A stretch of 64,000 nucleotides of DNA from Thermodesulfovibrionales bacterium (GCA_044450345.1 JBIOIY010000003.1:96001-160000); one strand, 5' to 3'. Numbered from the stretch's first letter, positions 31,711 to 51,362 are shown. The notes: generated by a model from the letters alone, not told the origin. Translations and numbers: made by a program.

Positions 31711-31744
31711 TTTTCCCCTTGATGTAATAAGAAACATTTATACA

Positions 31745-31800
31745 TGTAACAGAAAATTAACACTCCTTTAATAATCCATTAACAGACCGTTTGCTATGCT
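31745..31800 (+). promoter_or_regulatory. Pho-box-like promoter (Cys-rich ORF)
   Basis: TGTAAC-N5-ATTAAC-N5-TTTAAT-N5-ATTAAC-N11-TATGCT; an extra in-phase TGTAAT at 31723. Confidence 0.78.
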
Positions 31801-31819
31801 ACTGACCAGGGAGGCAACT

Positions 31820-32008
31820 ATGAATATACAATACATTATCTGTCCCCATCTTAAAGGCAGTTATGACGGAGCGGTCTGCAGCAGCGTCAGCAAGTTGATC
31901 AAGAACATAGAAGACGTCACCATTAAATTGTGTATGGGCAGGCATTACGAGGTATGCTCGATATATCGGGAGTCTCTGCTCCCTCAGGAGCCTGTCAGTG
32001 CCATTTAA
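31820..32008 (+). CDS. Small Cys-rich protein (C-P-x10-C-x17-C-x7-CSIY), 62 aa
   Basis: GGGAGG SD before ATG 31820; shared Cys spacing. Confidence 0.75.
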   Translation: MNIQYIICPHLKGSYDGAVCSSVSKLIKNIEDVTIKLCMGRHYEVCSIYRESLLPQEPVSAI

Positions 32009-32122
32009 GATATGACGCGGACAAGGAAGTCAGTTAGGCCTCTTTGGCATTTCACGGATTGCCGATGTGTCGATCTTACTCGCCGTCGCCTTGCAAAATT
32101 CAGTTCGGACCAGCCGGAAAAA

Positions 32123-32178
32123 TTTCATATTCCCTTAACTTAAATGACATCATGCCGTAAAAACCAAAATGATATCCT
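32123..32178 (+). promoter_or_regulatory. Pho-box-like promoter (HMA-like and two Cys-rich ORFs)
   Basis: TTTCAT-N5-CTTAAC-N5-TGACAT-N5-CGTAAA-N11-TATCCT. Confidence 0.65.
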
Positions 32179-32212
32179 TAAACTGGATTGTATTTGGAAG
32201 AAGGAAACTCGA

Positions 32213-32506
32213 ATGATCACCTATATCATCAAACATCATGTCCCGGGGCAGATAAGGCTGGATGTTCCTGTATTGAGAAAAATTGCCGAGTATCGGCTAA
32301 AAAAGATATCGAAGGCCGTGACAAGGCTTCCCGTCTTTACGGGAATAAGAGACCTTACGGTAAATCCAGGGAACGGCAGCGTAGCTATTGAATATGACAC
32401 CGAAGTTGTCGATATCATAGATTATCTGGAAGACATGGCAGTTATTGTCGAAACGCTGGATTGTCTGGAAGGACAAACGCTGGATTGTCCGGAAGGACAC
32501 CGATGA
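32213..32506 (+). CDS. Cys-less HMA-like (HMA2-type) domain protein
   Basis: 'KHHVPGQIRLDVP...GIRDLTVNPGNGSVAIEYD'; AAGGA SD before ATG 32213. Confidence 0.7.
   Translation: MITYIIKHHVPGQIRLDVPVLRKIAEYRLKKISKAVTRLPVFTGIRDLTVNPGNGSVAIEYDTEVVDIIDYLEDMAVIVETLDCLEGQTLDCPEGHR
32451..32498 (+). repeat. 24-bp tandem duplication with 1 mismatch
   Basis: aaacgctggattgtctggaaggac / aaacgctggattgtccggaaggac. Confidence 0.9.
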
Positions 32507-32517
32507 AGGAGAAAGAT

Positions 32518-32679
32518 ATGGCTTGTATTGATTATCTGGAGACAGAGGCAAGGTGTTCGAGAGGGATCCCGGTCGCGCATCTTTTCAGGCGTTTCTTCTG
32601 TGAGTCAAAGCCTGAAAAATGCCCGATTGTCTTGTGGGAAGTATCTTCTCGGGCGATAGATAACACTAAATCATCCTAA
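32518..32679 (+). CDS. Small Cys-rich protein, divergent member (C-x9-C-x14-C-x6-CPI)
   Basis: AAGGAG SD before ATG 32518; MACIDYLETEARC...FFCESKPEKCPIV. Confidence 0.6.
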   Translation: MACIDYLETEARCSRGIPVAHLFRRFFCESKPEKCPIVLWEVSSRAIDNTKSS

Positions 32680-32689
32680 GGAGGAAGCC

Positions 32690-32869
32690 ATGCAGTGCCC
32701 GAATCTTTTGAAATGGGTAATATCATCATGCAAAGCCGTGGAGAGACCCTATGTCCCGAGCCTTTTTGAGCTGGAGGAGTATTGTAGCACCGGAGATCAC
32801 AGGAAGTGTCCTTTTTACATGAGAGACATCGTCAGGCCCAATACTGTGAGGGATAAAGTGTCCGCATAA
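32690..32869 (+). CDS. Small Cys-rich protein not in the ORF track, 59 aa (C-P-x9-C-x17-C-x7-CPFY)
   Basis: AAGGAGG SD; translated by hand as MQCPNLLKWVISSCKAVERPYVPSLFELEEYCSTGDHRKCPFYMRDIVRPNTVRDKVSA*. Confidence 0.8.
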   Translation: MQCPNLLKWVISSCKAVERPYVPSLFELEEYCSTGDHRKCPFYMRDIVRPNTVRDKVSA

Positions 32870-33129
32870 CATCTCAAGACTTAGTCTGATAATCCCACTT
32901 CTATGGAGAAAAAGGCAGCGTTAAAGAGGGCTCGCGTGGGTCTCAGGTGTACGCGGTAACCCCTTCATGCATCGCTGACCACTACCATTAAATAGTATCC
33001 CCGGCATGAATAAAGTGCCACGGTTTTGCGGCAGAGCTTAATAGGTAAGTAATGAAAGAAGTGTTAGACAATGTGCCGTTTCAGGCGATAGACTGAACTA
33101 TATATTAAGGATTCAAGGAGAGTATTCGT

Positions 33130-33423
33130 ATGGGATTGCTTGATGATGTATTTAAAGGCGGCAATGTTATAACGGGCTTGGCTATCGGCATCGGAGCAGC
33201 GGTGCTTGGACCGGTTGTATTGCCTATATTGGCCGGGGCTGCGAAACCTTTGGCAAAGGCCGCGATAAAGGGCGGCCTTGCGCTGTGTGCAAAAGGAAAG
33301 GAGTCAGCTGCCGAGTTCGGCGAGGTCTTTGAAGATATTGTTGCAGAAGCGAAAGCGGAACTCGCGGAAGAGCACGAAAAGGCAATTCCTGTTCCGCCTA
33401 CCGAAGCGGAACAAAGTGTCTAA
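33130..33423 (+). CDS. DUF5132-like small GxxxG membrane protein (FezA-like)
   Basis: 'GLAIGIGAAVLGP...KPLAKAAIKGG...GEVFEDIVAEAKAE'; TAGACA-17-TAGACT promoter and AAGGAG SD. Confidence 0.75.
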   Translation: MGLLDDVFKGGNVITGLAIGIGAAVLGPVVLPILAGAAKPLAKAAIKGGLALCAKGKESAAEFGEVFEDIVAEAKAELAEEHEKAIPVPPTEAEQSV

Positions 33424-33901
33424 TATCCCGGAAGCATTTATAGGCCATAAGATGACGGGCAGGTTGAGACTAAGGGTCCCGTCGAGAAGAGGAGATGGCG
33501 CATATCTGGGAAAAATCACTGAGGAATTCTCATCTCTCCCGGGCATTGCGCAGGTAATCGTGAACACCGAAACATCGAGCGTTCTCTTCCTGCATAATCT
33601 TTCAGAAGACGCAATTATGGGACATCTCAGTGCAAGCGGTCTGTTCAGAATTTCGGGGGCTCCCACAGGTCAAGGAGACGTGCATAGCGGAGTCAAAGGA
33701 TGTTTTCGGGAGATGTCCCGCAAAGTCGAGAAGGCGACGGGAGGAACGATGGGTATCAGTGAAGTTGCCTTCCTTGCGCTGTTCGGCGCCGGGGTCATGC
33801 AGATAGGTCGGGGGAATTTTACTGCGATCCCCTGGTACACGGCATTTTGGTATGCGCTTAATATCTTTCTGAAATCAGACGCACAGAAGGCCGGGGAATA
33901 G
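33416..33901 (+). CDS. HMA-like domain with C-terminal hydrophobic segments (FezC-like)
   Basis: GTG 33416 overlaps the upstream stop; 'HKMTGRLRLRVP...VNTETSSVLFLH'; C-terminus 'FLALFGAGVMQI...PWYTAFWYA'. Confidence 0.72.
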   Translation: MSNIPEAFIGHKMTGRLRLRVPSRRGDGAYLGKITEEFSSLPGIAQVIVNTETSSVLFLHNLSEDAIMGHLSASGLFRISGAPTGQGDVHSGVKGCFREMSRKVEKATGGTMGISEVAFLALFGAGVMQIGRGNFTAIPWYTAFWYALNIFLKSDAQKAGE

Positions 33902-34029
33902 CTGTACTCATCCTGTCTGAAGGTGAAGGCGCAATAAACCCGGAGAGTTCTATTTTTTCATCAGCCTTTTGAAAAAGATGAATGGCTCAGTCAAAAAGTA
34001 ACTTTTCTCAACAGAGAAGGAGGTCAGTT

Positions 34030-34710
34030 ATGTCTCAGGAAAAAGTCATGCGCGGCACTCGTTACGCAGAAGAGGTAAGCGAGGCCGGGACGACCGTAAA
34101 AGAGGGCGTAGTCAGCAGCCTTAAAGGTCTCAATGAGATTGAGGCGGAAATCGTGAGCCTCGTGAGGAACACGGTTTCCAACACTTTGCGTGCAACGGGA
34201 GAGGTGGCGATCGAAAGTATCTCCATTTCGAAAGACGTCATCAAGGGGGCTATCCAGGCCACAGAGGAGGTTGGAACAGGACTTATCCTGAGCACGAAAA
34301 GTGTTGCCAAAGGGGTGATCATGGGGGTGAGTGATGTAGGCGGCGATGTGGTAGCTGTTGCAGGCCAGACAGTAAAAGGCGCGGTAAAGGGGGCCGCTGA
34401 AGTCGGCGCGGATGTCGCCCTTGTTGCAAGGAGAGCGGTCGATGGCGTCATCGAGGCAACAAAGGAGATAGGGGGGAATGTGGAAGATGTCGCGAAAGTG
34501 GCAGTCGGAGGGGCGATTGAGGCTGCAGGGACAATAGGTAATACGGCGGTGAAGGCTGTTAGGGAGATGCTCGTCGGCGTGGTCGAGGGCGTAAAGGAGA
34601 TTGCGAGCGCAGCTCTGCCTAAACCGAGGACCTCCACACCGGAGACAAAAGCGCCTGCATCAAAACCGGTTGTTGCGGAAAAAGCGGCTGCGACCAGGAA
34701 AAAGAAGTAA
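34030..34710 (+). CDS. Gly/Ala/Val-rich 22-residue helical repeat protein with a Lys/Ala/Pro tail
   Basis: AAGGAGG SD before ATG 34030; at least 7 tandem 22-aa units; paralog at 42706. Confidence 0.8.
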   Translation: MSQEKVMRGTRYAEEVSEAGTTVKEGVVSSLKGLNEIEAEIVSLVRNTVSNTLRATGEVAIESISISKDVIKGAIQATEEVGTGLILSTKSVAKGVIMGVSDVGGDVVAVAGQTVKGAVKGAAEVGADVALVARRAVDGVIEATKEIGGNVEDVAKVAVGGAIEAAGTIGNTAVKAVREMLVGVVEGVKEIASAALPKPRTSTPETKAPASKPVVAEKAAATRKKK

Positions 34711-34722
34711 GAATAATACCCC

Positions 34723-37700
34723 GTGGTTCGGCCTGTACACGTTGCGGTAAGAGGAAGGGCCCGCTTTAAAGTAGCGGGCCTTTATCGGTCTCCCTTACTC
34801 AAAGATCGGATTGAACTCACCCTTAATTCACTTGACGGAATAAGAGAGGCATCGGCCAACACACATACAGGCAATGTTCTTGTATATTTCAATTCTGACA
34901 ATACTCCCGGGTCAATCGCATCGGCAATAGCAGCGGCAGTGTATGGCTACAGATCTCAGCATTGTAACAATCATTCTCCGGAAAATAAAGAAGACGCAGA
35001 CGGCATCATACCCTATCGGCGGAAAGAAGCTCCCGGAGAGCAAGGCAGGCCTGTTGTTACGAGGAGGAAATTAAGGAAGAGCATCATCAAGGCAGAGGAA
35101 CAGAATCCTGATCCCTGGCACCAGATGGATGCGCGTGAAGTGGCGGGAAAGTTTGGCACATCCCAGCACTACGGGCTTCCCAATGACATCGCAAAGACGA
35201 ATCTGAAGCGGTATGGTCCCAATGTCCTTCCGGAGGCGGTGCCCCGCTCCGGGTTAAGCATTTTCCTCGGCCAGTTTAACTCACTTCCTGTGGCACTGCT
35301 CGGCGTTGCTGCCGGGATTTCTATAGCCACGGGAGGCGTCGCCGATGCGATCGTAATTGCCGGCGTGGTGGTCATCAACGCAGTAATAGGGTATGGGACC
35401 GAAACCCAGACCGAAAAGACCATCCATGCATTGAAAAGCCTTGTCAGACCTTCTGCCACGGTCAAGCGGGATGAACAAATTATAGAACTCGGAGCAGAGG
35501 AAGTCGTCCCAGGAGATCTGCTGATCCTCAGACCGGGCAGTTACGTGCCGGCAGACGCAAGACTGCTGGAGACGTATCACCTGAGTATCGACGAGTCCGC
35601 ACTTACGGGAGAGAGTCTCCCTGTGATCAAAACAAGTTTGCCTTGCGAGGTTGAAGAAATCCCCCTTGCAGACAGGGTCAATATGGTCTATATGGGGACA
35701 CTCGTGACCGGCGGGCAAGGGATCGCCGTGGTCGTGGCAACGGGCAGGTTTACCGAGATAGGAAAGATCCAGGCGCTTGTAGGAGAGGCAGAATCTCCGG
35801 ACACCCCGATGGAGCGGCAGCTTCATAAAATGGGCACACAGCTTGTCTTTATAAGCGGAGCTGTCTGCGGACTTGTCTTTATCGTCGGACTTCTGCGCGG
35901 ATACGGCTTTTTAGAGATGCTCAAGAGTTCCATATCTCTTGCCGTTGCCGCAGTCCCGGAGGGACTCCCTACTGTTGCAACTACAACCCTCGCCTTAGGT
36001 ATAAGGGACATGAGGCGGCATAACGTGCTCATCAGGCATCTTAATGCGGTCGAAACACTGGGGGCCGTACAGACGATCTGTCTTGACAAGACGGGAACAA
36101 TCACGATGAACAGGATGTCGGTAGTCGCCGTCCATACCGGCATGAAACGATATGAAGTCTCAAATGGGGCGATCACGGCTTCCCGGGAGAAGGTGAGCCC
36201 CTATTCAGTCGACGAACTCCTTAGGCTGCTGCACGTGAGCGTGCTCTGCAGCGAGAGCGAGGTCGAAAGAGAAAAGGGTACTTATGCGGTCAGCGGCTCT
36301 CCGACCGAAAACGCCCTGATCTATATGGCGTTGAACGCCGGTATCAATGCCGTTTCTCTTAGAGAGAGCTTCCCCGTGTTGAGCATCACTCATCGTTCGG
36401 AAAGTCGCAATTACATGTCTACCGTCCACAAATCCGAGAGTGGACCAGTCATCATTGCGGTAAAGGGGAGCCCCGGCGAGGTCCTTTCAATCTGCAACTG
36501 GCACATGAAGGGCGGAGAGAAGCTTCCGTTGACGGAGGAGGACATGCTTCTCATAGAGACGGAAAATGAACGCATGGCCGGTCAGGCGCTCAGGGTCCTC
36601 GGCGTTGCCTATTCATCGCGGGACGATGAGGAAGCCCTCTCCGAAGATAGAAAAGATCTTCATGAAGACCTGATATGGCTCGGCCTCGTCGGCATGGCAG
36701 ACCCCATCAGGGAAAATGTGAAAGAACTGGTCCACGGGTTCCACGAAGCCGGAATCGATACGGTCATGATAACGGGAGACCAGAGCCCCACCGCATATGC
36801 TATTGGAAAGGAATTGAATCTGAGCAATAACGGACACCTCGAAATCCTTGATTCTACGCACCTTGCGAATATCGAGCCCGAGGTCATGAAGGCCCTCTGT
36901 GAGAGGATACACGTCTTTGCCCGCGTCAGTCCTGCACATAAGCTCCAGATTGTCCAAGCGCTCCAGTCCGCCGGGAAAGTGGTTGCGATGACCGGAGACG
37001 GTATCAACGACGGCCCGGCGCTCAAGGCAGCGGATATAGGGATCGCCATGGGCCACACAGGCACTGATGTCGCCCGCGAGGTGGCTGACGTGATTATTGA
37101 AGACGACAATCTCGAAACAATGCTTATCGCGGTAAGCAGGGGAAGGACAATCTATAACAATATCCGGAAATCAGTCCACTTCCTGCTGTCCACAAACCTC
37201 AGCGAGATCATGGTGATGTTCACGGCGATCTCGACAGGTCTTGGCCAGCCGCTCAATGCGATGCAGCTTCTCTGGATCAATCTTATCACGGACATTGCTC
37301 CGGGACTGGCCCTTGCCCTTGAACTTCCGGAGCCGGATGTGTTGAGCCGTCCCCCCCGGGACCCACACGAGCCGATTGTCAGAAATTCCGATTTCAAGCG
37401 GATAGCTTTCGAGTCGGCAATGCTTTCCGCGGGCTCCCTGGGGGCTTACGGGTATGGCATTGCACGCTATGGAATAGGACCGCGGGCTGGTTCGGTTGCA
37501 TTCCTCAGCCTTACGGCAGGACAGCTCCTTCACGCTCTGAGCTGCCGCTCTGAGCAACACAGCATGTTCAGCGCCGAGAGACTGCCACGGAACAAGTATC
37601 TTGAAGTGGCACTGGGCGGTTCCTTTGCGCTCCAGATACTGGCGATGACTGTCCCCGGGCTGAGGAGACTTTTGGGAATAGGTCCAATCAGTATCCTCGA

Positions 37701-37782
37701 TGCTCTTGTGATCGGCGGAAGCGCTGCTTTTCCGCTTCTCGTAAACGAGGCGACAAAATCCCCCTTGAGGTTGGCAAGATGA
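34723..37782 (+). CDS. P2A-type (Ca2+-like) cation-translocating P-type ATPase with an extra N-terminal HMA-like domain
   Basis: TGES, AVAAVPEGLP, DKTGT, GDGINDGPAL, STNLSE and QLLWINLITD; N-terminus 'VHVAVRGRARFKV...SANTHTGNVLVYFN'. Confidence 0.92.
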   Translation: MVRPVHVAVRGRARFKVAGLYRSPLLKDRIELTLNSLDGIREASANTHTGNVLVYFNSDNTPGSIASAIAAAVYGYRSQHCNNHSPENKEDADGIIPYRRKEAPGEQGRPVVTRRKLRKSIIKAEEQNPDPWHQMDAREVAGKFGTSQHYGLPNDIAKTNLKRYGPNVLPEAVPRSGLSIFLGQFNSLPVALLGVAAGISIATGGVADAIVIAGVVVINAVIGYGTETQTEKTIHALKSLVRPSATVKRDEQIIELGAEEVVPGDLLILRPGSYVPADARLLETYHLSIDESALTGESLPVIKTSLPCEVEEIPLADRVNMVYMGTLVTGGQGIAVVVATGRFTEIGKIQALVGEAESPDTPMERQLHKMGTQLVFISGAVCGLVFIVGLLRGYGFLEMLKSSISLAVAAVPEGLPTVATTTLALGIRDMRRHNVLIRHLNAVETLGAVQTICLDKTGTITMNRMSVVAVHTGMKRYEVSNGAITASREKVSPYSVDELLRLLHVSVLCSESEVEREKGTYAVSGSPTENALIYMALNAGINAVSLRESFPVLSITHRSESRNYMSTVHKSESGPVIIAVKGSPGEVLSICNWHMKGGEKLPLTEEDMLLIETENERMAGQALRVLGVAYSSRDDEEALSEDRKDLHEDLIWLGLVGMADPIRENVKELVHGFHEAGIDTVMITGDQSPTAYAIGKELNLSNNGHLEILDSTHLANIEPEVMKALCERIHVFARVSPAHKLQIVQALQSAGKVVAMTGDGINDGPALKAADIGIAMGHTGTDVAREVADVIIEDDNLETMLIAVSRGRTIYNNIRKSVHFLLSTNLSEIMVMFTAISTGLGQPLNAMQLLWINLITDIAPGLALALELPEPDVLSRPPRDPHEPIVRNSDFKRIAFESAMLSAGSLGAYGYGIARYGIGPRAGSVAFLSLTAGQLLHALSCRSEQHSMFSAERLPRNKYLEVALGGSFALQILAMTVPGLRRLLGIGPISILDALVIGGSAAFPLLVNEATKSPLRLAR

Positions 37783-38990
37783 AAAAAGACTTCATATTTA
37801 CATCCGAATCGGTTACCGAAGGCCATCCTGACAAACTCTGTGACCAGATCAGCGACGCACTTGTCGACCACTTCCTTCAGCAGGACCCCTTTTCGCGGGT
37901 CATTGCCGAGTGCGCCGTATCAACAGCGATCATTTTCATCGCCGCGAGGTTTTCATCCGACGCCAGTGTCGATTTCCCGAATATCGCCAGACAGGTCATC
38001 AACCAGATCGGGTATGACCAGCAGGCTTTTAACGCGAAGACCTGCAGCATCGTCACAAGCCTCAAAGAACTGCCCTCCGCAGAGGACCAGCGCTTTGACG
38101 AGAGGAATCTGACGGAAGATGAAATTGACGCTATCCCCGTCCGTAATCAGGTCACCGTATTCGGATTTGCCTGCAACCAGACACCCTCGCTAATGCCCCT
38201 TCCGATCTGGCTCGCCCATCGACTGGCACGAAAACTTACCGCAGTGAGACTCCAAAAAGTGCTTCCCTATCTGGCGCCCGACGGAAAAACCCAGGTCAGC
38301 GTGGAGTATAAGAATGGAAAGCCCTACCGGATCCACACCATAACGGTCATAGCCAGTCAGAACAAGACGGAGAAGTCGGGCGGTCCAGACCTTAAGAGAC
38401 TTTATGATGATATGCTGGATACCGTCATTCGTCCCGCCTTTCTTGACGAGGAGATCAGACCCGATGCCGGCACAAGGATATTCATAAACCCCGATGGTCC
38501 TTTTATCACGGGCGGACCCTCAGTGCATTCAGGGCTCACAGGGAGGAAGAATGCGATCGACACCTATGGTGAATATTCCCGGCAAAGCGGCGCGGCCCTC
38601 AGCGGCAAGGACCCTCTTCGGATAGACAGAATCGGCGCGTATGCCGCCCGGTATGCGGCAAAGAATATCGTTGCCGCGGGCATCGCCGACGAATGTGAAA
38701 TTCAGTTGAGCTATTCCATAGGGCTGTCCCGTCCAGTAAGCATTCAGGTAGAGACATTCGGCACAGGTCGGATTTCCGACGAAGAGATTTCCAGAATTAT
38801 CGAAGGCCTGTTTGATTTCCGCCTCGCAGGGATTGTCCGCCAGTTCAACCTCAGATTTCTCCCCTCCATAATCAAGGGAGGCTTTTACAGGAAACTTGCC
38901 TCTTATGGTCATGTTGGCAGAATGGATATCGGTCTTCCCTGGGAATTGACGGATAAGGCCGGCATACTTCGTGACGAAGTTGCCGGGTGA
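37779..38990 (+). CDS. Divergent S-adenosylmethionine synthetase (MetK) paralog
   Basis: FTSESVTEGHPDK, PDGKTQV, GLTGRK, SGKDP and YGHVGR are retained; GAGDQG is replaced by VRNQV; ATGA overlap with the ATPase gene. Confidence 0.9.
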   Translation: MKKDFIFTSESVTEGHPDKLCDQISDALVDHFLQQDPFSRVIAECAVSTAIIFIAARFSSDASVDFPNIARQVINQIGYDQQAFNAKTCSIVTSLKELPSAEDQRFDERNLTEDEIDAIPVRNQVTVFGFACNQTPSLMPLPIWLAHRLARKLTAVRLQKVLPYLAPDGKTQVSVEYKNGKPYRIHTITVIASQNKTEKSGGPDLKRLYDDMLDTVIRPAFLDEEIRPDAGTRIFINPDGPFITGGPSVHSGLTGRKNAIDTYGEYSRQSGAALSGKDPLRIDRIGAYAARYAAKNIVAAGIADECEIQLSYSIGLSRPVSIQVETFGTGRISDEEISRIIEGLFDFRLAGIVRQFNLRFLPSIIKGGFYRKLASYGHVGRMDIGLPWELTDKAGILRDEVAG

Positions 38991-39083
38991 GAGACTTATG
39001 ATAGCCGGGTACGTGTCGATCCTTCCGGTGGCCCGTTAAGAAGGCATCTACCGGTTGTAAGCGCCCCGCTTTTTTTGTTCTCC

Positions 39084-39139
39084 TGTAACGAAAACTTCAC
39101 GGTAGCGTCAACTTCCCTTAACGTTCCATCCGTTACAAT
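39084..39139 (+). promoter_or_regulatory. Pho-box-like promoter (olsB/olsA-like pair)
   Basis: TGTAAC-N5-CTTCAC-N5-CGTCAA-N5-CTTAAC-N11-TACAAT. Confidence 0.75.
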
Positions 39140-39173
39140 TCACCTGTCAATTTCTTCGACAGGGAGGTGCGAC

Positions 39174-39968
39174 ATGTATCACGATGCCAAAACGAATTTT
39201 ATGATGACGCAGGGTCGCTTTCTGGTAAAGCTGGCGGAGGACCGAAGTGAGTTGGAAAAGGCTCTGAAACTCAGATTTGAGGTGTTCAATCTCGAACTCA
39301 AGAAAGGGCTCGCCATATCCTACCTTAATGGGATGGACACGGATGAATATGATAAGTACTGCGCCCATCTCATCGTAATCGACGCTGACTTCGACAGGGT
39401 GGTCGGGACCTACCGGTTATTACCTGGTTTTGTTGCTGAATTCAATGTCGGATACTATTCGGAAAACGAGTTCGATATGACCAACATAAAGAACCTGCAA
39501 GGGGAAAAACTTGAGCTCGGCCGATCATGCGTGCACAGGGACTATCGAAACGCCCAGGTCATTAACCTGTTGTGGGCGGGTATTGCAAGGTACGTGGAAT
39601 TGTATAACATCCGTTATTTATTCGGATGTGCAAGCCTTTGTTCCTCGGTCACGGAAGAGGTCAGCCTTGTCTATTCCTACCTCTCCCGTCATCACCCTGC
39701 CGAACCTCGTTATTCCGTATATCCGCTGCAGAAAGTAACTGGACTGCGCATGCTCCAGGTCGAAGACCGGAGAGAGGCATTGAAAATGCTGCCGCCGCTC
39801 ATAAAAGGGTATACGTCCCTTGGCGCAAACATTTGCGGAAAGCCATCGTACGATGCCATTTTCGGAACTGCTGATTTCTTCGTTCTCCTCCAGACGGAAA
39901 AAATTATGGCCCGCTACCGGAAGAAGTATTTCCAGGAACAAGAGGAAGCGTTGTGCCCCGTATCATGA
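39174..39968 (+). CDS. OlsB-like GNAT N-acyl amino acid synthase
   Basis: 'LRFEVF..E', 'DTDEYDKYCAHL', 'VVGTYRLL', 'YYSENEFD', 'LELGRSCVHRDYR', 'LFGCAS' and 'PPLIKGY'; GGGAGG SD before ATG 39174. Confidence 0.85.
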   Translation: MYHDAKTNFMMTQGRFLVKLAEDRSELEKALKLRFEVFNLELKKGLAISYLNGMDTDEYDKYCAHLIVIDADFDRVVGTYRLLPGFVAEFNVGYYSENEFDMTNIKNLQGEKLELGRSCVHRDYRNAQVINLLWAGIARYVELYNIRYLFGCASLCSSVTEEVSLVYSYLSRHHPAEPRYSVYPLQKVTGLRMLQVEDRREALKMLPPLIKGYTSLGANICGKPSYDAIFGTADFFVLLQTEKIMARYRKKYFQEQEEALCPVS

Positions 39969-40759
39969 GGGCGGGCAAAGCACTGTGCTTGGCGGTGTTG
40001 CATCTCGCATGTCTGTTGACCGGGTTGGTCATCGCGGTCCCCTTTCTTGTCAGCCGCGACCGGAAGGCCAGAGCAAGGGCCGGGGGTATGATGATCTGGG
40101 CAAGATGCGCGTGTTGGATACTGGGCATAAGGATTCATCGCACGGGTTCATGTCCTCCCGTCAAGGGCATGTTTGTGGTCAGCAACCATAGCAGTTATCT
40201 CGATATCATTGTTCTCGGAAGTTTATTTCCCGCAGTTTTTTTGGCGAAGAAGGAAGTCGGGTCCTGGCCCCTGATCGGGTGGCTTGCGCGGCTTGCAGGT
40301 ACGCGCTTTGTCGTGCGGGAATCGAGAAAGTCCACAGCGGACGCGCTTGAAAATATAAAACGGCTACTGGATTCCGGAATGAATGTGATCGTTTTTCCTG
40401 AGGCTACTACCAATGATGGGACAATGGTCAGGGACTTCAAGAGTTCCCTTTTTAAAGCTCCTGTTGACATGAAGATACCGGTGCTGCCGGTCAGCGTCAT
40501 GTACTCGCACGTGAACTCAATCGCCATGACCCCGGAGATGCGGGACTCTGTTGCGTGGTACGGGGAAATGGACCTTATTCCTCATCTTTGGGATGTGCTT
40601 GGCCTGAAGCGGATTGATGTCAGGGTGCACCGCTGCCCTGTGATACGGGAGGTCCTGGCTGAGGACAGCTCCAAAACCAGGAAGATACTAGCCGCTTTCG
40701 CCCATAGCGAAGTCATGTCAGGATTGGAAAGTCTGAGACTTGAGATATCCTCTTCCTAA
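39953..40759 (+). CDS. Lysophospholipid/lyso-ornithine lipid acyltransferase (PlsC/OlsA-like)
   Basis: NHSSYLD (HX4D), FLAKKEV, FPEATT and FKSSLF. Confidence 0.88.
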   Translation: MPRIMRAGKALCLAVLHLACLLTGLVIAVPFLVSRDRKARARAGGMMIWARCACWILGIRIHRTGSCPPVKGMFVVSNHSSYLDIIVLGSLFPAVFLAKKEVGSWPLIGWLARLAGTRFVVRESRKSTADALENIKRLLDSGMNVIVFPEATTNDGTMVRDFKSSLFKAPVDMKIPVLPVSVMYSHVNSIAMTPEMRDSVAWYGEMDLIPHLWDVLGLKRIDVRVHRCPVIREVLAEDSSKTRKILAAFAHSEVMSGLESLRLEISSS

Positions 40760-40793: not shown

Positions 40794-41132
40794 TCATTCT
40801 TCGCCAAATCCACCTTCAACAGCCTCGATTACCTTTTCCGCAACTCCCAGGGCTTTTTCCGTTGTTTTCTCTACCCGCTCGTCGCACGTTTCTGCCTCGG
40901 TTAGACGGAAATAGCCGTTTTTTTCGAGAATCCCGATGATCTGTTCGCAATTGATTTTTTTCTCATCAAAGTGAATTATCGCACTTCCAGTAGCAGCATG
41001 AATCTCTGTCGCCGATATGCCATTAAGTCCTTTTATGAATGTTTCAAACTCTTTCGTTTTTACGGCATTATCATGAAGTATGGGTGATTCAATTCTCATC
41101 CTGCCAGGAACGTAATGAATATAGTATTTCAT
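40794..41132 (-). CDS. Cys-less HMA-like (HMA2-type) protein
   Basis: 'MKYYIHYVPGRMRIESP...ATGSAIIHFD...ILEKNGYF'; paralog of 50993..51361. Confidence 0.72.
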   Translation of the reverse strand: MKYYIHYVPGRMRIESPILHDNAVKTKEFETFIKGLNGISATEIHAATGSAIIHFDEKKINCEQIIGILEKNGYFRLTEAETCDERVEKTTEKALGVAEKVIEAVEGGFGEE

Positions 41133-41243
41133 ATATAACCATGATACCACTCCACTTATATCAAATGATAGAATTTATTGAATGTCATAATCCTCCCTTC
41201 TACAGGCCTTCTGCAATGTCTACTATAAAGGTCCCAACGCTGA

Positions 41244-41861
41244 TTAAATGATCTGTTCTATCCCTATGGCAATCAATAAGAGACCCGCCACAACCGAGGC
41301 CTTTTTGGATATATTCCATTTTATAAAGAATTCTGCGACGTAGTTCCCCGCCCATAGAGCAAGAAAACTGAGCACCGCAGACAAAAATCCTACCCAAAAT
41401 GAGTTAAGTCCAATCATCCCGGCGCTTACCCCTCCTCCTACATTGTTTATCGAAAGCGCAATGCCAAGGAAAGTTGCTTCTCTGAAATCGATATGTTTTG
41501 AATTATCCATATCAGCCTTTTTGGGATCCATCAAAACATGAAAGGCACTTTTCTTGTTTGCCTGGACAGACTCGGCAGAACAATCATTGTTTTTTTTCAG
41601 GTATGGTTCTAATATCATCCACAAGCCGATGGCGGTAAGCAGCAACATCGCTATCAGAGAGGATAGTTGCTTACTGATAACTCCTGATATTATTGTTCCT
41701 GAGAAAGCTGCAACGAATGAAATGACAAAGGTAATTACAGAAATCCAAAGATTTATCGGAGTGGATATCCTCACTCCTCGAATGCTATAGGCGATTCTGA
41801 CACCTATATTGTCAAAATTATTCATTAAGGCAATAAAAAACGTATAAAAAAAATGATGCAT
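41244..41861 (-). CDS. YtaF/MntP-family membrane protein (putative Mn2+ efflux)
   Basis: Two repeats 'ALMNNFDNIGV..AY' and 'GIALSINNVGGGVSAG'; 'KADMDNSKHIDFREA'. Confidence 0.7.
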   Translation of the reverse strand: MHHFFYTFFIALMNNFDNIGVRIAYSIRGVRISTPINLWISVITFVISFVAAFSGTIISGVISKQLSSLIAMLLLTAIGLWMILEPYLKKNNDCSAESVQANKKSAFHVLMDPKKADMDNSKHIDFREATFLGIALSINNVGGGVSAGMIGLNSFWVGFLSAVLSFLALWAGNYVAEFFIKWNISKKASVVAGLLLIAIGIEQII

Positions 41862-42119
41862 TACATTGGTCCTTTCAGTGCGGAAACACACTCTAGAGTG
41901 GGATATTAATTTTTCTCAGGTCGCGGAAATACCGCCCGCATATTGTGGGCTACTTAACAATAGCCGGAGCTCACCATAATTTTGTCTAAGTCCTCAACGA
42001 CCTGTTGTTTCCCAAGTATATCAGTTGTCGAGTTGATCTAGAGTATATCCATAGGCAAGTAATGAAAAAATCCTTGCTCACGCCCGAAACTCCGGATAAA
42101 GCATACTCCGGAAAATGCA

Positions 42120-42705: not shown

Positions 42706-43302
42706 ATGAAAGCTGAAGCAACCAGTAACGTAAATGTTCGTGAAGAAATCGGCAAGGCGGGAACGACCGTCAAAGACGGAATGATCAGCAGCTTGAAAGG
42801 GATTAATGAGATCGAAGCAGAGATTGTAAGCCTGGTCCGAAACACAGTATCCCATACGTTTCATGCAGGCGGCGAAGTCGCACAGGAGAGTCTCTCACTC
42901 ACCAGGGAGGTGGTGAAAGGCGCAATAACTGCCGCTGAGGAAGTCGGCACAGGCCTGATCATGAGCACAAAAAGTGTAGCAAAAGGGATAGTGATGGGAG
43001 TAAGCGATGTCGGCGGTGATGCGGTTGCTGCCGCAAGCCAGACTGTAAAAGGCGCGGTAAAGGGAGCCGCGGAGGTCGGCGCTGATGTTGCGCTGGTAGC
43101 CAGGAGAACAGTTGATGGCGTCATCGAGGCGACCAAAGAAATAGGTGGAAATGCGGAAGACGTTGCGAAAGTGGTTGTGGAGGGTGCAATCGAAGCTGCG
43201 GGCAGTATCGGAAACACTGCGGTGAAAGCGGTAAGGGAAATGTTGGTCGGCGTTGTTGAGGGAGTAAAGGAAGTTGCAAATGCGGCCCTTCCGAAGCGAT
43301 AA
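42706..43302 (+). CDS. Second 22-residue Gly/Ala/Val repeat protein, lacking the basic tail
   Basis: Near-identical stretches to 34030..34710 (NEIEAEIVSLVRNTVS; QTVKGAVKGAAEVGADVALVARR). Confidence 0.82.
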   Translation: MKAEATSNVNVREEIGKAGTTVKDGMISSLKGINEIEAEIVSLVRNTVSHTFHAGGEVAQESLSLTREVVKGAITAAEEVGTGLIMSTKSVAKGIVMGVSDVGGDAVAAASQTVKGAVKGAAEVGADVALVARRTVDGVIEATKEIGGNAEDVAKVVVEGAIEAAGSIGNTAVKAVREMLVGVVEGVKEVANAALPKR

Positions 43303-43387
43303 CATGCAATAGAAGGGCGATGACGGAGGAGTCTTCTCGCTTTCCAATGGTTGTCTTCACTCTTGTTTTTGTAAGAATGAGGGAGTC

Positions 43388-43609
43388 ATGACAGGTGTAT
43401 GCCAGTACGATAATGATGCGGAAGAGAGACAACATTCCAAGGCTATCCAAATGCTCGCAGGGCAATTAGGCATGCCCGAGAAGGAGATAAGAGAACTTTA
43501 CGAGGAAATTCTCTGTAGTATCAAAGAAGGGGCAAGGATAAAGGATTATCTCACCGTTCTGGTGAGTCGCAACGTAAGAGATTCGATAAGAAGGAGTACC
43601 CTTCAGTAA
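43388..43609 (+). CDS. DUF3562-like small three-helix protein
   Basis: 'ARIKDYLTVLVSRNVR' signature; GGAG SD. Confidence 0.6.
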   Translation: MTGVCQYDNDAEERQHSKAIQMLAGQLGMPEKEIRELYEEILCSIKEGARIKDYLTVLVSRNVRDSIRRSTLQ

Positions 43610-43680
43610 AATTCGGGAATGAAGCCGGCTGAGATGGAAGCCATTGGGAGAGGGAACGCGCTACTATTGACAGCCCGACT

Positions 43681-44064
43681 TCACTTTACGGTTTTTTTGA
43701 GCGTTTCTTTTGCCTTCCTTAGGGGCTTTTTTCTGGGCGTCGCGTTGTTGCGCTTTGGTTCAGGTTTACCTTCAAGTTTTAGGACCTGCATTTCGAGTTT
43801 TTTGATTCCGGCTTTAATTGCTTTCACCTTGTTATTGAGCATGGGATTTTTGACTTTTCCGCTCAACGCATACACTGTTCCGCCCAGTTCTGAAAATTCC
43901 TTTTGCACTTTTGTCTTCAGCTCATAAAGCTGATACCGACGTTTCCCTTCCTCGGTGAGTTCTTCTGCCTTTTTCTTTACAACGGAAGCCCCCTCCTTCA
44001 CAATAGCGATGCCTTCTTCGACGCCTTTTTGCAAATCATCCCTAATTTTTGTCCAAAAATCCAT
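43681..44064 (-). CDS. Coiled-coil hypothetical protein with a Lys-rich tail
   Basis: AAAGGAG SD before ATG 44064; MDFWTKIRDDLQKG...; tail RKKPLRKAKETLKKTVK. Confidence 0.7.
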   Translation of the reverse strand: MDFWTKIRDDLQKGVEEGIAIVKEGASVVKKKAEELTEEGKRRYQLYELKTKVQKEFSELGGTVYALSGKVKNPMLNNKVKAIKAGIKKLEMQVLKLEGKPEPKRNNATPRKKPLRKAKETLKKTVK

Positions 44065-44443
44065 TTGTTCTCCTTTGCTCTCATTCATCAATAGACAGTC
44101 AATGATTTGACGGCACCCTACACAAATACCTCATCATCTGCTTTCAATAAGGCTATCATATAATTCAAAGCTCTGCAATCGCGATAGCCGGCCATGATGA
44201 GCGCAGACGACTCTTTGCACGTTCTTTTTGAAATCACCGATACAAAAATTTCTGCCCCCCCCTTCGGGAGCATGCGCTGCCTCTTACTCAGCAGTGTCGT
44301 ATTCTGAACCCGTCAAGGTCACTGATGTCATTGCTCCGGAAGGAAACGCCTTCCATTTTCGGCCGATAGAACTTCCTGAGAGGCACCTGCAAATTTGAAC
44401 GTCAGCACCTGGATTGTTTTACAATTTTTTCCCTGTGCTCGGT

Positions 44444-44953
44444 TCAGTTGAAAAAAAGGTAGTCGCTACCTTTTTTGTCCCCATGACACGATATGCAGCT
44501 TTCCGGCTTGCCCGATTCCAGCACGTATCCGTTAAGGGAATCATACTTTACCCAGAACCAGTCACCCGCCTCAGGATTATAGCCTTTCACCTTAAACATC
44601 ACGGTCAGCGCCTTCAGTTTCTTGTCGGCGGCATATTCTTCATTGATAATGCAGGCTCCATCAGGCATTTCCTTAATCTCCTTGATGGAGGCGAACGCGG
44701 CATCGTTCACATAGGTTGTCTGGAACGGACTGTGGGGATCATTACCCGCATGCAGTTTGCCTGTTCCCGGCCAGAGATTAAACCTCTCGTAATAAGGTTT
44801 AGGTAGCGTCATAAATTTGTAAAGCTTTGCAGCATCGGAACCGGGGTAAACAGTCTTGGTGCCGTCCACTTGGGTTTGATGGATAGCGTATGCACTATAC
44901 ACGCCACCAAGAACTAGAACTATCACCAGAAAAGTCAACAATGTCTTTCTCAT
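44444..44953 (-). CDS. Cytochrome P460 / c'-beta family periplasmic c-type cytochrome
   Basis: GAGGAGG SD before ATG 44953; signal peptide; 'TYVN...MPDG', 'VMFKVKGYNPEAGDWFW' and a C-terminal CISCH. Confidence 0.8.
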   Translation of the reverse strand: MRKTLLTFLVIVLVLGGVYSAYAIHQTQVDGTKTVYPGSDAAKLYKFMTLPKPYYERFNLWPGTGKLHAGNDPHSPFQTTYVNDAAFASIKEIKEMPDGACIINEEYAADKKLKALTVMFKVKGYNPEAGDWFWVKYDSLNGYVLESGKPESCISCHGDKKGSDYLFFN

Positions 44954-45123
44954 CTTATTAACCTCCTCAGATTTTTTTTTCGTGTCTCTCATGGAGAGCT
45001 CTCGTCGCATACCCGAAATCAAGCAGAGCGGCCCCAACGAATACTGCCATCGCAATCTTCTCACCGTGAACCCCTCTCATCGCTGCCTTTCAGCCGCAAA
45101 ATACTCTACCTCCCATTAACTTC

Positions 45124-45178
45124 AGTGTAGCATTCCATTGTTACAGGAACATATCAGAACTGTTAAATGAGCGTTAAA
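45124..45178 (-). promoter_or_regulatory. Pho-box-like promoter (cytochrome P460-like gene)
   Basis: Minus strand TTTAAC-N5-TTTAAC-N5-TGATAT-N5-TGTAAC-N10-TACACT. Confidence 0.7.
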
Positions 45179-45180
45179 TT

Positions 45181-45432
45181 ATGGGCGAGGTCATTCATCC
45201 CGAGATGGTAAGCATTGCCGGAGGCCTTCGAGTGCTCATAGTCGAAGATGAAGCTCATCGGCCCGATGAGAACAAAGAATCGTCGTATCTATTCGAAATT
45301 GAGTTGCAATCGGAGGCAAGTAATGAAAATTTTGGAAGGCACATTACTGTTCCCTTCGGGCGGCTCACCAAGAAGGGGGCACTTAAACTGGCTCCAGCAG
45401 CGGTTAAATATGCTCTCAAGAGACAAAAATAA
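45181..45432 (+). CDS. Small hypothetical protein
   Basis: 83-codon ORF with no SD or motif; weak support. Confidence 0.3.
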   Translation: MGEVIHPEMVSIAGGLRVLIVEDEAHRPDENKESSYLFEIELQSEASNENFGRHITVPFGRLTKKGALKLAPAAVKYALKRQK

Positions 45433-45525
45433 CGAAGACAACTAAGATATTTAAATTTGTAATAATTCCAATAAATACTTCTAAATTGAAAAATATCTGA
45501 TGGCGTGATAACTTGAATCAAGAGG

Positions 45526-45718
45526 ACCGATAAAGCCAAACCTTCTGCGAAGAGGGGGCGGAAAGCGGCGGGTCTTGCCCCTCTTCCGAAGCCGCGAATG
45601 GAAAAAGGATCACCTGAGGCACATTCTTCTTTTACCGGAGGGGAACTCGGCAAAGCCGTTATAAGGAAGACGAGGCAGAAAAAATCGAAATGAACGTTGT
45701 GACTCAGCGGTTTGCAGC
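45526..45718 (+). ncRNA. c-di-GMP-I (GEMM-I)-like riboswitch with an atypical or extended 3' half
   Basis: 'cgataaagccAAACCttctGCGAagagGGggcGGAAAGcggcGGGTC' matches the GEMM 5' half (AAACC, GNRA loop, GxAAAG); a possible 3' strand 'gactcagcggtttgcag' lies ~125 nt later. Confidence 0.5.
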
Positions 45719-45809
45719 TGGAGGCGCGTGGCAAGACGCAGATTAGTGAGGAAGATACCTACTGCTCGCCTTTCTTGCTGCACCTGAAAAAACAGAGAGA
45801 AAAGAATTC

Positions 45810-46556
45810 ATGCAGATAGTATCAGTAGCAAACCATAAGGGTGGAGTCGGGAAGACTACCTCGGCAGTCAATATTGCCGCCTGTTGGGGAGAGACGGGGC
45901 AAAGGGTTCTCCTTGTTGATCTCGACCCTCAGGGAAGTGCAAGCATGTCTTTCGGCATAGAGAATGACGGAAACGATATCCTGCAGGCATTACAGAAGAC
46001 CATAGCATTGCCTGTAGTGAGTACTCAAGCCGAAGGCGTGGACCTGGTTCCTGCCGGGCCTCATCTCGCGTCCGCCAGACAGAGATTTACCGGGGCAATA
46101 GGCAAGGAACTGCTGCTTCGTTGCCTGAAACAAATGCAGGATGGTTGGGACAGGGTAATTATAGATTGCCCGCCCAGTTTAGGGATTCTCACCATGGCTG
46201 CTTTGTGGGCAAGCAATCATGTCATTATCCCTGTTGAAGCAAACTATTTGGCGATGAGCGGCCTTAAACAGATGGTGGATACCGTTAAATCTGTGGGAAA
46301 TGATCACCCTGGCATCGCTATCAGGGCCGTCATACCATGCCGGGCTCACCCAAGGCGCAGAGTTCATCAGGCGGTCATGGAACAGGTTGAAAAGCTTTTC
46401 CCGGAGAAAGTCTCGCCGATCGTCCGGGAGAACGCAGCTCTGGCCGAAGCTCCCGGACGCGGGCGGCCGATCATACTTTCTGCCCCTAAATCCCACGGGG
46501 CCGAAGATTACCGACAAGTTGCATTATGGTTGTCTGACCATATCGGGAAGATCTGA
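45810..46556 (+). CDS. Orphan ParA/Soj-family ATPase
   Basis: NHKGGVGKTT, DLDPQG, IDCPPSLG and VRENAALAEAP; no parB adjacent. Confidence 0.9.
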   Translation: MQIVSVANHKGGVGKTTSAVNIAACWGETGQRVLLVDLDPQGSASMSFGIENDGNDILQALQKTIALPVVSTQAEGVDLVPAGPHLASARQRFTGAIGKELLLRCLKQMQDGWDRVIIDCPPSLGILTMAALWASNHVIIPVEANYLAMSGLKQMVDTVKSVGNDHPGIAIRAVIPCRAHPRRRVHQAVMEQVEKLFPEKVSPIVRENAALAEAPGRGRPIILSAPKSHGAEDYRQVALWLSDHIGKI

Positions 46557-46632
46557 CAATAGGGACTATTCCCTGTATTTCCGATTAGCCGGCCGGCAAG
46601 TCACGCTGTGGTTTTTTCCGCACAGCATACAA

Positions 46633-46687
46633 TTTCACAGAGGTTTAATAAAATCGTAATGATAAGGTAATTTGAGGATTGTAAAAT
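46633..46687 (+). promoter_or_regulatory. Pho-box-like promoter (DUF2934 operon)
   Basis: TTTCAC-N5-TTTAAT-N5-CGTAAT-N5-GGTAAT-N10-TAAAAT. Confidence 0.75.
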
Positions 46688-46752
46688 TGCAATATGGATT
46701 CAAATGTTTTCCTCGGAGGGAACCAAAATGGAGGACACTGGGAAAGGAGGAG

Positions 46753-46932
46753 ATGTCAATGAATGTGGACCTGCATGATTTAATACAGCAGCTTGCATGC
46801 GAACTCTATTTGAAAAGCGAAAAAGCCGAGGGTCATGATCTTAACAACTGGATCGAGGCGGAATGGATTGTAAAAAATCGCTTCGAGCGCACCAAAGATC
46901 TCAACAATATCCTGGCAGAAGAGACGGGGTAA
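46753..46932 (+). CDS. DUF2934-like small protein
   Basis: 'IQQLACELY.....EGHDLNNWIEAE'; AAGGAGG SD. Confidence 0.7.
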   Translation: MSMNVDLHDLIQQLACELYLKSEKAEGHDLNNWIEAEWIVKNRFERTKDLNNILAEETG

Positions 46933-46985
46933 TTAAAGTCGCTCTATAGTCCGGTGACAACGGTCCAGCGATTAAGGAGGATACT

Positions 46986-47192
46986 GTGTGGGAATATAGC
47001 CATATCGACGAGCGGTTCGAAGTATCAATCAGGATAATGCATGATCCTCGTATCGATGCGCAGACGCTTAATGAGGTCTCACAGTCCATTAGCGACCTTG
47101 TGGACGAATTTGCAACAAGGGTTCGCACTCTGGTGGAGTATGAGGACAGGGATGGCAGGGAAAGCTCAAGTCTGAGCCATGATCGTTCTTAA
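46986..47192 (+). CDS. Small hypothetical protein
   Basis: Strong TAAGGAGG SD before the GTG start. Confidence 0.5.
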   Translation: MWEYSHIDERFEVSIRIMHDPRIDAQTLNEVSQSISDLVDEFATRVRTLVEYEDRDGRESSSLSHDRS

Positions 47193-47224
47193 AAAATGCT
47201 GCTCACTTAATAGTTAGGAGGCAT

Positions 47225-51361: not shown

Positions 51362-51362
51362 G

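Follow-up and report, generated by a model that had tools for sequence, protein, structure and literature searches.

The closest described relatives of the system treated here are the ferrosome (fez) gene clusters, ferrosomes being the sole organelle tied so far to a toolkit of a CoBaHMA-bearing pump, a hairpin protein and a GxxxG protein. In the available part of their description (Grant et al., bioRxiv 10.1101/2020.01.10.902569), FezB is a P1B-6 pump with D[Y/F]SCA and HNxxT motifs and an N-terminal R-rich motif, FezC combines an HMA domain with two transmembrane helices, and FezA-like proteins have a hydrophobic GxxxG region; all three are enriched in isolated ferrosomes, and fezBC are required for their formation. 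A second relevant setting is the neighbourhood of ccyA (calcyanin), which holds candidate genes for intracellular amorphous CaCO3: in Microcystis aeruginosa PCC 7806, two DUF5132 genes and a CoBaHMA-hairpin gene flank ccyA and cax, and the adjacent DUF5132 gene and the CoBaHMA-DUF454 (hairpin) gene are co-expressed with ccyA (Bruley, bioRxiv 10.1101/2024.07.07.602159). The available part of this preprint makes no mention of ferrosomes in connection with its DUF5132 and CoBaHMA genes. Here we describe a five-gene operon at positions 33130-38990 (+ strand) of a 64,000-nucleotide window, which is part of contig 3 of the 3.19-Mb, 91%-complete metagenome-assembled genome of a Thermodesulfovibrionales bacterium; the nearest relatives of this genome are other Nitrospirota/Thermodesulfovibrionales metagenome-assembled genomes. 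The operon joins partners of these kinds to a P-type pump of another class.

All five genes of the same-strand run pointed out in an earlier note (made from the sequence by a model) were recovered, tightly packed on the + strand. They encode a DUF5132 protein (33130..33423; PF17195, 55.1 bits with a cut-off of 25), a CoBaHMA-hairpin protein of 161 residues (33416..33901; HMA_2, 41.1 bits with a cut-off of 30), a 242-residue protein made of eight 22-residue repeats, with no Pfam family (33982..34710), a P2A-type (Ca2+/Mn2+-type) P-type ATPase of 1019 residues with an N-terminal CoBaHMA domain, recognized by domain and motif matches (34723..37782), and a second MetK with a remodelled methionine pocket (37779..38990; TIGR01034, 375.6 bits with a cut-off of 309.4). 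The MetK-like gene overlaps the pump stop codon by 4 nt and is evidently translationally coupled to the pump gene. A terminator-like hairpin with a T run (39059..39071, + strand; consensus scan alone) lies just after the MetK-like gene and is the probable end of the operon.

The pump has the domains E1-E2_ATPase, Cation_ATPase_N and Cation_ATPase_C, the DKTGT and TGES motifs and, in membrane segments M4, M5 and M6, the motifs VPEGL (in an AVPEGL context), STNLSE and WINLITD, respectively. CPx, D[YF]SCA and HNxxT motifs are absent from it, and P1B models score far below P2A models, so that its earlier assignment to the P2A rather than the P1B class is borne out. Among 96 full-length orthologues, PEGL is kept in 94, DKTGT in all 96 and the M6 pattern WIN-x-x-[ST]-D in 93, mostly as WINL-x-SD. 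The top NCBIfam models are of the PMR1 type (624.9 bits, cut-off 798.3) and the SERCA type (548.9 bits, cut-off 703.4), and the closest solved structures are human SPCA1 (8iww, 481.7 bits), Listeria LMCA1 (6zhf, 476 bits) and SERCA1a (414 bits). With these three P2A pumps it shares the P2 domain set, DKTGT, TGES, PEGL and the N/E and N/T/D ligands of M5 and M6; unlike them, it has in addition an N-terminal CoBaHMA domain and basic linker (~130 residues). This N-terminal region contains the R-rich motif RGRARFKV and matches HMA_2 with 26.2 bits, under the cut-off of 30, the orthologues scoring 29-31 bits. The pump keeps the acidic and polar residues that form the Ca2+ site in M4, M5 and M6, and our best guess for its specificity would be Ca2+ (or Ca2+/Mn2+).

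Of its two small membrane partners, the DUF5132 protein has a hydrophobic, Pro-kinked GxxxG (GLAIG) segment and, after it, a conserved amphipathic helix of acidic character; P32, P40, K43, K47, D69, E73 and E77 are invariant in its alignment. The start of the hairpin protein is most likely the GTG at 33416, overlapping the DUF5132 stop codon (the original frame being 33278-33901), because 36 aligned homologues keep an M-x-P-E/D-A-x-x-x-H lead-in upstream of the ATG. Its HMA_2 match spans profile positions 10-153 of 154 and includes a TGRLRLRV motif. The AlphaFold2 (AF2) model (pLDDT 82.6) has the order b0-b1-a1-b2-b3-a2, a linker helix (residues 89-107) and a hairpin (114-132/140-159). The protein thus has the features by which a CoBaHMA domain is recognized, namely a b0 strand with a conserved His, a basic b1, a ferredoxin-like fold and no CxxC, and H11, R16 and R18 are invariant across the 36 sequences. 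A Foldseek search of the model against the PDB gave no match at E<=0.001, only weak HMA-domain rows (rice HMA, TM 0.61-0.66). The predicted complex of the CoBaHMA-hairpin and DUF5132 proteins scored 0.02 against a mark of 0.32, a result that speaks neither for nor against binding. CoBaHMA domains have been hypothesised to interact with anionic lipids (available part of bioRxiv 10.64898/2025.12.07.689555, citing Gaschignard 2024).

For comparison, clusters of the fez type were located via HMA_2 matches in frames of 700-800 residues in 401 Desulfobacterota genomes. P1B-6-type pumps with HMA_2 N-domains were found in eight fetched loci (L165, L168, L170, L171, L174, L175, L176 and L179); they have DYSCA, DYSCV, DFGCA, DYACA or DYSCG together with HNxxT, and an N-terminus of the form H-x-x-P-G-R-x-R, and one of these pumps has as its neighbour a protein with two FeoA domains. 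The HMA-like N-domain proposed in the earlier note as a common element is thus indeed carried by FezB-like pumps as it is by the pump of the module. The kinship of the accessory proteins with their Fez counterparts, likewise suggested there, emerged from profile comparison with these motif-defined P1B-6 clusters. The top HMA_2 protein of the Desulfobacterota sample (142.8 bits, 187 residues) is encoded directly upstream of the P1B-6 pump in L179, and this FezC-like protein aligns with the profile of the module hairpin protein over both domain and hairpin (hhalign 99.1%, E 4.8e-19, 147 columns). A family of small fez-cluster proteins with GxxxG and an acidic helix (6 seeds) matches the DUF5132 profile of the module at 92.1% (E 6.1e-7); the controls reached at most 1.0% (reversed), 2.9% (30 column shuffles) and 2.0% (30 half-wise shuffles). 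A profile search among 1.84 billion proteins widened the GxxxG family (624 matches at E<=0.001, 150 representatives), and the agreement with the DUF5132 profile then rose to 95.4% (E 2e-8). None of the 6 fez-cluster seeds reaches the Pfam cut-off for DUF5132; among the 150 representatives, DUF5132 leads the Pfam families in number of matches (11 members at E<=0.01). Profile comparison makes DUF5132 a distant relative of the GxxxG proteins found in P1B-6 (fez-type) clusters, and a toolkit common to the module and the ferrosome clusters is supported.

The likeness therefore covers an R-rich CoBaHMA N-domain on the pump, a CoBaHMA-hairpin protein, a GxxxG/acidic-helix protein and extra small CoBaHMA proteins. 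Unlike the fez clusters, the module has a P2A pump (PEGL, N/E in M5, N/T/D in M6) in place of a P1B-6 pump, and its 22-mer repeat protein and MetK-derived protein are absent from the fez-type loci examined. It is also linked to Pho genes, with no FeoA or other iron genes nearby: within the window we found none of FeoA/B, Fur and DtxR, the neighbours being Pho, Ols, Nramp and MgtE-like genes. Another pump, a P1B ATPase of the CPC type that bears CoBaHMA at its N-terminus (M4 context VMACPCATVLAAS), stands beside P1B-6 pumps in L165, L168, L174 and L176 and also beside the P2 module in L129, L146, L151 and L156; it may be the FezH type of the ferrosome preprint.

The earlier note had proposed that these genes belong together, and a recurrence search agrees. 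With the pump as query against a genome collection, 432 relatives were found and 74 loci kept; arrangement was judged in the 50 loci whose flanks extend at least 2.6 kb upstream and at least 1.3 kb downstream of the pump. All four partners occur in canonical order and strand in 36 of the 50 (37 if L031, where a split match spoiled the positional test, is counted), and 48 of the 50 (49 with L031) have the MetK-like gene after the pump. The five-gene arrangement is far beyond chance. By record title, the carriers include Nitrospirota/Thermodesulfovibrionales, Ca. Magnetominusculus, Syntrophales, Desulforhabdus, Ca. Brocadia, Binatia, Acidoferrales and Chlorogloeopsis, the same gene order being seen in Nitrospirota, Desulfobacterota, Brocadia, Binatia and the cyanobacterium Chlorogloeopsis. 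A search started from DUF5132 gave a match in 37 of the 401 sampled Desulfobacterota genomes; among the 40 loci fetched, 34 hold the PEGL-pump module and none has a P1B-6 pump beside DUF5132. In Nitrospirota, 65 of the 401 genomes sampled, G000 among them, have DUF5132, yet none of the 14 other genomes of the window's own family does; its gene is the sole copy in the source genome. This patchy spread, together with an operon GC of 0.54-0.55 against 0.45-0.48 in the immediate flanks, suggests horizontal transfer, and the conserved five-gene module thus appears to be horizontally mobile. The literature covered on ferrosomes, DUF5132, CoBaHMA and intracellular CaCO3 describes no P2A pump with these partners, although P2-type pumps may already figure in the list of CoBaHMA architectures by Gaschignard (2024). 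The module is widely conserved yet unstudied.

Variants of the module were also seen. In one locus of Chlorogloeopsis fritschii PCC 6912, a complete variant comprises DUF5132, a DUF5132-hairpin fusion, a CoBaHMA-P2 pump and a MetK-like gene; the fusion (L194:13828-14400, 190 residues) joins the DUF5132 region to the hairpin part of the HMA_2 model (positions 89-152) and hints that DUF5132 and hairpin may work side by side. Another locus of this strain has a pump and MetK pair with the pump split over two frames. Modules in decay were noted at L041:9959-13154, L128:8493-11650 and L132:2210-3509: the pump is split over two frames in the Chlorogloeopsis locus and over three in a Desulfobacterota locus, and in the third case only pump and MetK fragments are left behind intact DUF5132, hairpin and repeat genes. 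A search for pump-MetK fusions found ATPase and MetK domains combined in 3 of 135 longer MetK-containing proteins (P0151, P0152 and P0177); a natural fusion was dropped as a candidate, these cases being singletons with incomplete domain sets, which we read as products of frameshift or deletion. One ATPase-MetK singleton comes from a Richelia sp. record and extends the module to another cyanobacterial lineage.

The last gene of the operon had been described as a MetK paralog. It is indeed a second MetK copy above the TIGR01034 cut-off, albeit not a plain paralogue, as its methionine pocket is remodelled. A normal MetK is also present in 6 of 6 genomes checked (G000 and G001-G005), scoring 541-599 bits as against 368-404 bits for the module copies. 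When the 145 positions invariant in six housekeeping MetKs were scored across 91 paralogues, 87 proved to be kept in at least 90% of them and 33 in less than 10%. The retained motifs are GHPDK (91 of 91), GLTGRK (89 of 91), DTYG (89 of 91) and xIDR. The replacements include Glu to Arg (83 of 91), the Asp of GGPxGD to His, Phe to Leu and Lys to Arg (each 91 of 91), and Gln to Leu, Ser or Met; GAGDQG becomes P-x-K/R-N-Q-V, its Asp being Asn in 70 of 91, and the gating loop is rebuilt, its initial Q-S turning into L-P. In human MAT2A, Glu70, Gln113 and Asp258 hold methionine, and MAT tripolyphosphatase activity is independent of the formation of S-adenosylmethionine (SAM), according to the available part of PMC6850014. 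With positions mapped via flanking motifs, the equivalents of Glu70, Gln113/Ser114 and Asp258 are Arg, Leu/Pro and His in the module copy, i.e. all three methionine-contacting positions are replaced. The protein thus resembles MetK/MAT in its three-domain fold and triphosphate/metal motifs and differs in its methionine pocket, its gating loop and its status as always a second copy. Since the triphosphate motifs are kept and the methionine contacts replaced, it would bind ATP or triphosphate, and the use of methionine is unlikely.

The 22-mer repeats noticed earlier in the third protein hold up statistically: eight of them occupy residues 39-214 (V 18%, A 14%, G 13%), with an autocorrelation of 1.28 at lag 22, above all of 500 shuffles (maximum 0.31). 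This is the best-conserved gene of the module, with 50-81% identity across related loci compared to 55-71% for the pump. Its AF2 model, of low confidence, is all-helical, with four long helices; of the named atlas clusters, 'Phasin family protein' comes nearest (0.92, a score of a kind that chance reaches 4-10 times per 100). Long predicted helices are the point in common with phasins and amphipathic-repeat coat proteins, the difference being that the repeat protein is without a Pfam match; a coat or phasin-like role is possible and is offered as a lead only. A kinship with the Gly-rich family of fez-type loci was considered and rejected (hhalign 3.3%).

The operon lies, as the earlier note had it, in a Pho island: the window holds PhoU_div and PHO4, PhoB/R-like genes, PhoH and PstSCAB-PhoU. 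A Pho-box-like motif was derived from the region upstream of pstS as at least three [GT]TAA[CT]A hexamers at an 11-bp period. The scan with this pstS-type motif identified a candidate array of five hexamers (spacings 22, 11, 11 and 11 bp) at 31724..31784 on the + strand, 12 bp before the first small Cys gene and 1.35 kb upstream of DUF5132; only three such arrays occur in the window, the other two upstream of pstS, and none in 100 Markov shuffles. From the array, same-strand CoBaHMA and small-Cys genes lead into the operon. These are, all on the + strand, a four-Cys protein of 70 residues with no Pfam match and no family (orf70, 31796..32008), a single-domain CoBaHMA protein (32144..32506; HMA_2 29.5 bits with a cut-off of 30, and 27.7 bits in the search of its own genome) whose likely start is the M of MITYIIKHHVPGQIRL at ~32213, a Cys-rich open reading frame of 53 residues without family (32518..32679) and a four-Cys protein of 59 residues, also without family and kept beside small CoBaHMA genes in relatives (32690..32869). 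The caveat that the operon has no Pho box consequently stands for the 260 bp before DUF5132 and fails for the five-repeat array farther upstream. The 74 related loci contain 71 arrays, and 35 of these fall within 300 nt upstream of orf70-like (14) or CoBaHMA (21) genes; orf70-like homologues occur in 22 of these loci, and the 14 orf70-linked arrays are spread over 13 of the 22. In four Magnetominusculus-type loci and in Brocadia, an array precedes the first gene of a same-strand run into the operon. Judging from these motif placements, Pho control of the small-gene units is likely and that of the pump operon, via read-through, is plausible. The sigma70-like promoter of the earlier note carries no weight, as 10 consensus sites were found and 13.0 +/- 3.8 in shuffles. 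TAGAC repeats near the promoter-like site at 33065-33094 were dropped as a regulatory candidate, being absent from the upstream regions of pstS and phoH.

One of the carriers, Chlorogloeopsis fritschii PCC 6912, presumably forms intracellular amorphous CaCO3. The same strain is named in the discussion of Ca2+/H+ antiporters in the calcyanin paper, as far as its available part goes. Like the module, the ccyA neighbourhood places DUF5132 and a CoBaHMA protein with a C-terminal hairpin beside a calcium transporter; the difference is that this transporter is a Ca2+/H+ exchanger (cax) accompanied by calcyanin, the available description including no P-type pump, repeat protein or MetK-like gene. Magnetotactic Thermodesulfovibrionales form Ca-carbonate inclusions, with P-type ATPases unmentioned in the available part of the report (PMC12710302). 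We regard the links of Microcystis, Chlorogloeopsis and the magnetotactic Thermodesulfovibrionales to calcification as associations only.

Taken as a whole, the module may be a Ca-type pump with ferrosome-like partners that form a cation-loading membrane compartment or domain, a reading that we place slightly short of an even chance and that draws on the parts common with ferrosome clusters and the ccyA neighbourhood and on the coat-like repeat protein. Under phosphate starvation, the pump would carry Ca2+ (possibly Mn2+) out of the cytoplasm and into a membrane domain or a small compartment bounded by membrane. The two hairpin proteins would shape or mark this structure, a part also ascribed to their relatives in ferrosomes, and the repeat protein would coat it. 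The CoBaHMA domains could tie the pump and its partners to an anionic surface, and the MetK-like protein would act as an ATP- or tripolyphosphate-handling enzyme or regulator, not as a SAM synthetase. A number of observations weigh against this proposal. The pump falls under both equivalog cut-offs (PMR1-type and SERCA-type) and, in an alignment with the solved pumps read by eye, has Gln in place of the SERCA M8 glutamate, at a position conserved as GQLLHA in orthologues; together, these sub-cut-off scores and the M8 Gln leave the ion of the pump unsettled. The comparison clusters were picked by P1B-6 motifs, not by published FezA/B/C sequences. No counterpart of the repeat protein was seen in the fez-type loci examined; it is missing from four Magnetominusculus-type loci as well and has a model of low confidence (pLDDT 59.9). 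As for regulation, the 260 bp just before DUF5132 (32870-33130) are free of arrays, an array within 450 bp upstream is seen in only 3 of 54 relatives, and the promoter scan was not above chance. Finally, a plasma-membrane P2A pump has the same topology, and the module is present in many lineages without reported inclusions.

A Ca2+/Mn2+ export complex of the plasma membrane is a serious contender, nearly as good an account as the compartment and one to which we give a sizeable minority share of our confidence. LMCA1, which is among the closest characterised pumps, is a bacterial plasma-membrane exporter, and SERCA is tuned by micropeptides; DUF5132 and the hairpin protein could then be regulatory subunits, with CoBaHMA sensing anionic lipids and the activity being adjusted when phosphate starvation swaps phospholipids for ornithine lipids. 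The presence of OlsB/OlsA-like genes next to the module here and in ~15 of the 74 related loci is consistent with such a role, as is the hypothesised interaction of CoBaHMA with anionic lipids (bioRxiv 10.64898/2025.12.07.689555, available part), and the small CoBaHMA genes found also beside Nramp and YtaF/MntP-type transporters would fit a general transporter adaptor. On the other hand, an exporter leaves the conserved protein of eight 22-mer repeats and the remodelled MetK unexplained, and in the one studied system, ferrosomes, the partner homologues belong to an organelle-forming cluster (bioRxiv 10.1101/2020.01.10.902569, available part).

The MetK-derived protein is at the centre of two further accounts. 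In one of them, which we consider improbable, it would hydrolyse tri- or polyphosphate in the mobilisation of polyphosphate granules, with CoBaHMA docking on polyphosphate and the pump removing the released Ca2+; its pocket, turned from acidic to basic (E to R, D to H), would accommodate a phosphate chain instead of methionine. The strict conservation of this swap in the paralogues, the separability of MAT tripolyphosphatase from SAM synthesis (PMC6850014, available part), the Pho-type arrays within a Pho island and the storage of iron as iron-phosphate in ferrosomes (bioRxiv 10.64898/2026.06.16.732667, available part) agree with it; yet the scheme is pure inference and leaves the membrane hairpin proteins unexplained, and no Ppk or Ppx was seen in the cluster, where no search was aimed at them. 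The other account, of an ordinary second SAM synthetase for phosphate-starvation lipid remodelling that stands by chance beside a housekeeping Ca2+ pump, could appeal to the TIGR01034 score (375.6 against 309.4) and to the lipid-remodelling genes nearby. It is very unlikely in view of the three replaced methionine contacts, fixed across 91 paralogues, and of the 48-49 of 50 loci from several phyla, including loci without Ols genes, in which the MetK-like gene follows the pump.

A fuller version of the compartment reading, which we hold to be doubtful, is that anaerobes and some cyanobacteria use the module to build a membrane-bounded Ca (or Mn) body that has so far escaped recognition. This sister organelle to the ferrosome would form in response to phosphate starvation; a SERCA-like pump would load it, the repeat protein would be its coat, and the MetK-derived enzyme would perform non-SAM ATP or tripolyphosphate chemistry at its surface. 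The module could then be the missing genetic basis of intracellular Ca-carbonate or Ca-phosphate granules in bacteria lacking calcyanin, e.g. magnetotactic Nitrospirota. Were the ferrosome toolkit shown to serve a calcium-type pump across dozens of lineages, organelle building would be modular, a swap of the pump leading to a change of cargo, and the module would provide both candidate genes for bacterial intracellular calcification outside cyanobacteria and a MetK offshoot with a new activity. If the pump is an exporter instead, it would represent a prokaryotic SERCA-like pump with dedicated small subunits, tied to the membrane remodelling of phosphate starvation.

Further genes in the window touch on these subjects. 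OlsB-like and OlsA-like genes for ornithine-lipid synthesis (39075..40759, + strand; 179.1 bits with a cut-off of 320 and 176.8 with a cut-off of 300, both below the NCBIfam equivalog cut-offs) adjoin the module, probably as a separate transcription unit, and the OlsB-like match recurs in 15 of the 74 related loci. On the opposite strand follow a small single-domain CoBaHMA protein (40794..41150; HMA_2, 49 bits) and a YtaF/MntP-family membrane protein (41244..41891; TIGR02840, 156.5 bits with a cut-off of 149.6; Mntp, 49.7 bits). Also on the - strand, a 99-residue zinc-ribbon-like Cys protein with several CxxC pairs (51363-51662) is paired with a small CoBaHMA protein encoded downstream of it (50993-51361); the pair adjoins Nramp and is divergent from pstS. 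Five of the six HMA_2 matches of the source genome fall inside the window. The pair at 50993-51662 echoes the orf70-then-CoBaHMA pair at 31796-32506, and three copies of TGTAAC spaced 22 bp apart can be seen by eye ahead of it, in the intergenic stretch that it has in common with pstS.

Upstream of the cluster, the segment 20097-29413 encodes a VTT-domain protein, DUF3047, a metallophosphoesterase, PhoH, a second OmpR-type regulator, GH1, a PHP protein and a family-21 glycosyltransferase, and is likely a phosphate-starvation lipid-remodelling block. Just beyond the cluster, 42706-47701 includes a 198-residue open reading frame with a sub-threshold Phasin_2 match (16.3 bits with a cut-off of 24.9), a ParA/MinD-like ATPase (45810-46556) and a CBM48 protein (47225-47701), which are possible inclusion-associated or positioning genes. 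The Nramp of the window (48050-49318) is 82-84% identical to that of two Desulfobacterota genomes (L178:1784-2995 and L182:8194-9459), where its neighbour is a protein of 551-561 residues that bears a CoBaHMA domain at its N-terminus. CoBaHMA domains thus accompany Nramp as well, and this island looks horizontally shared across phyla.

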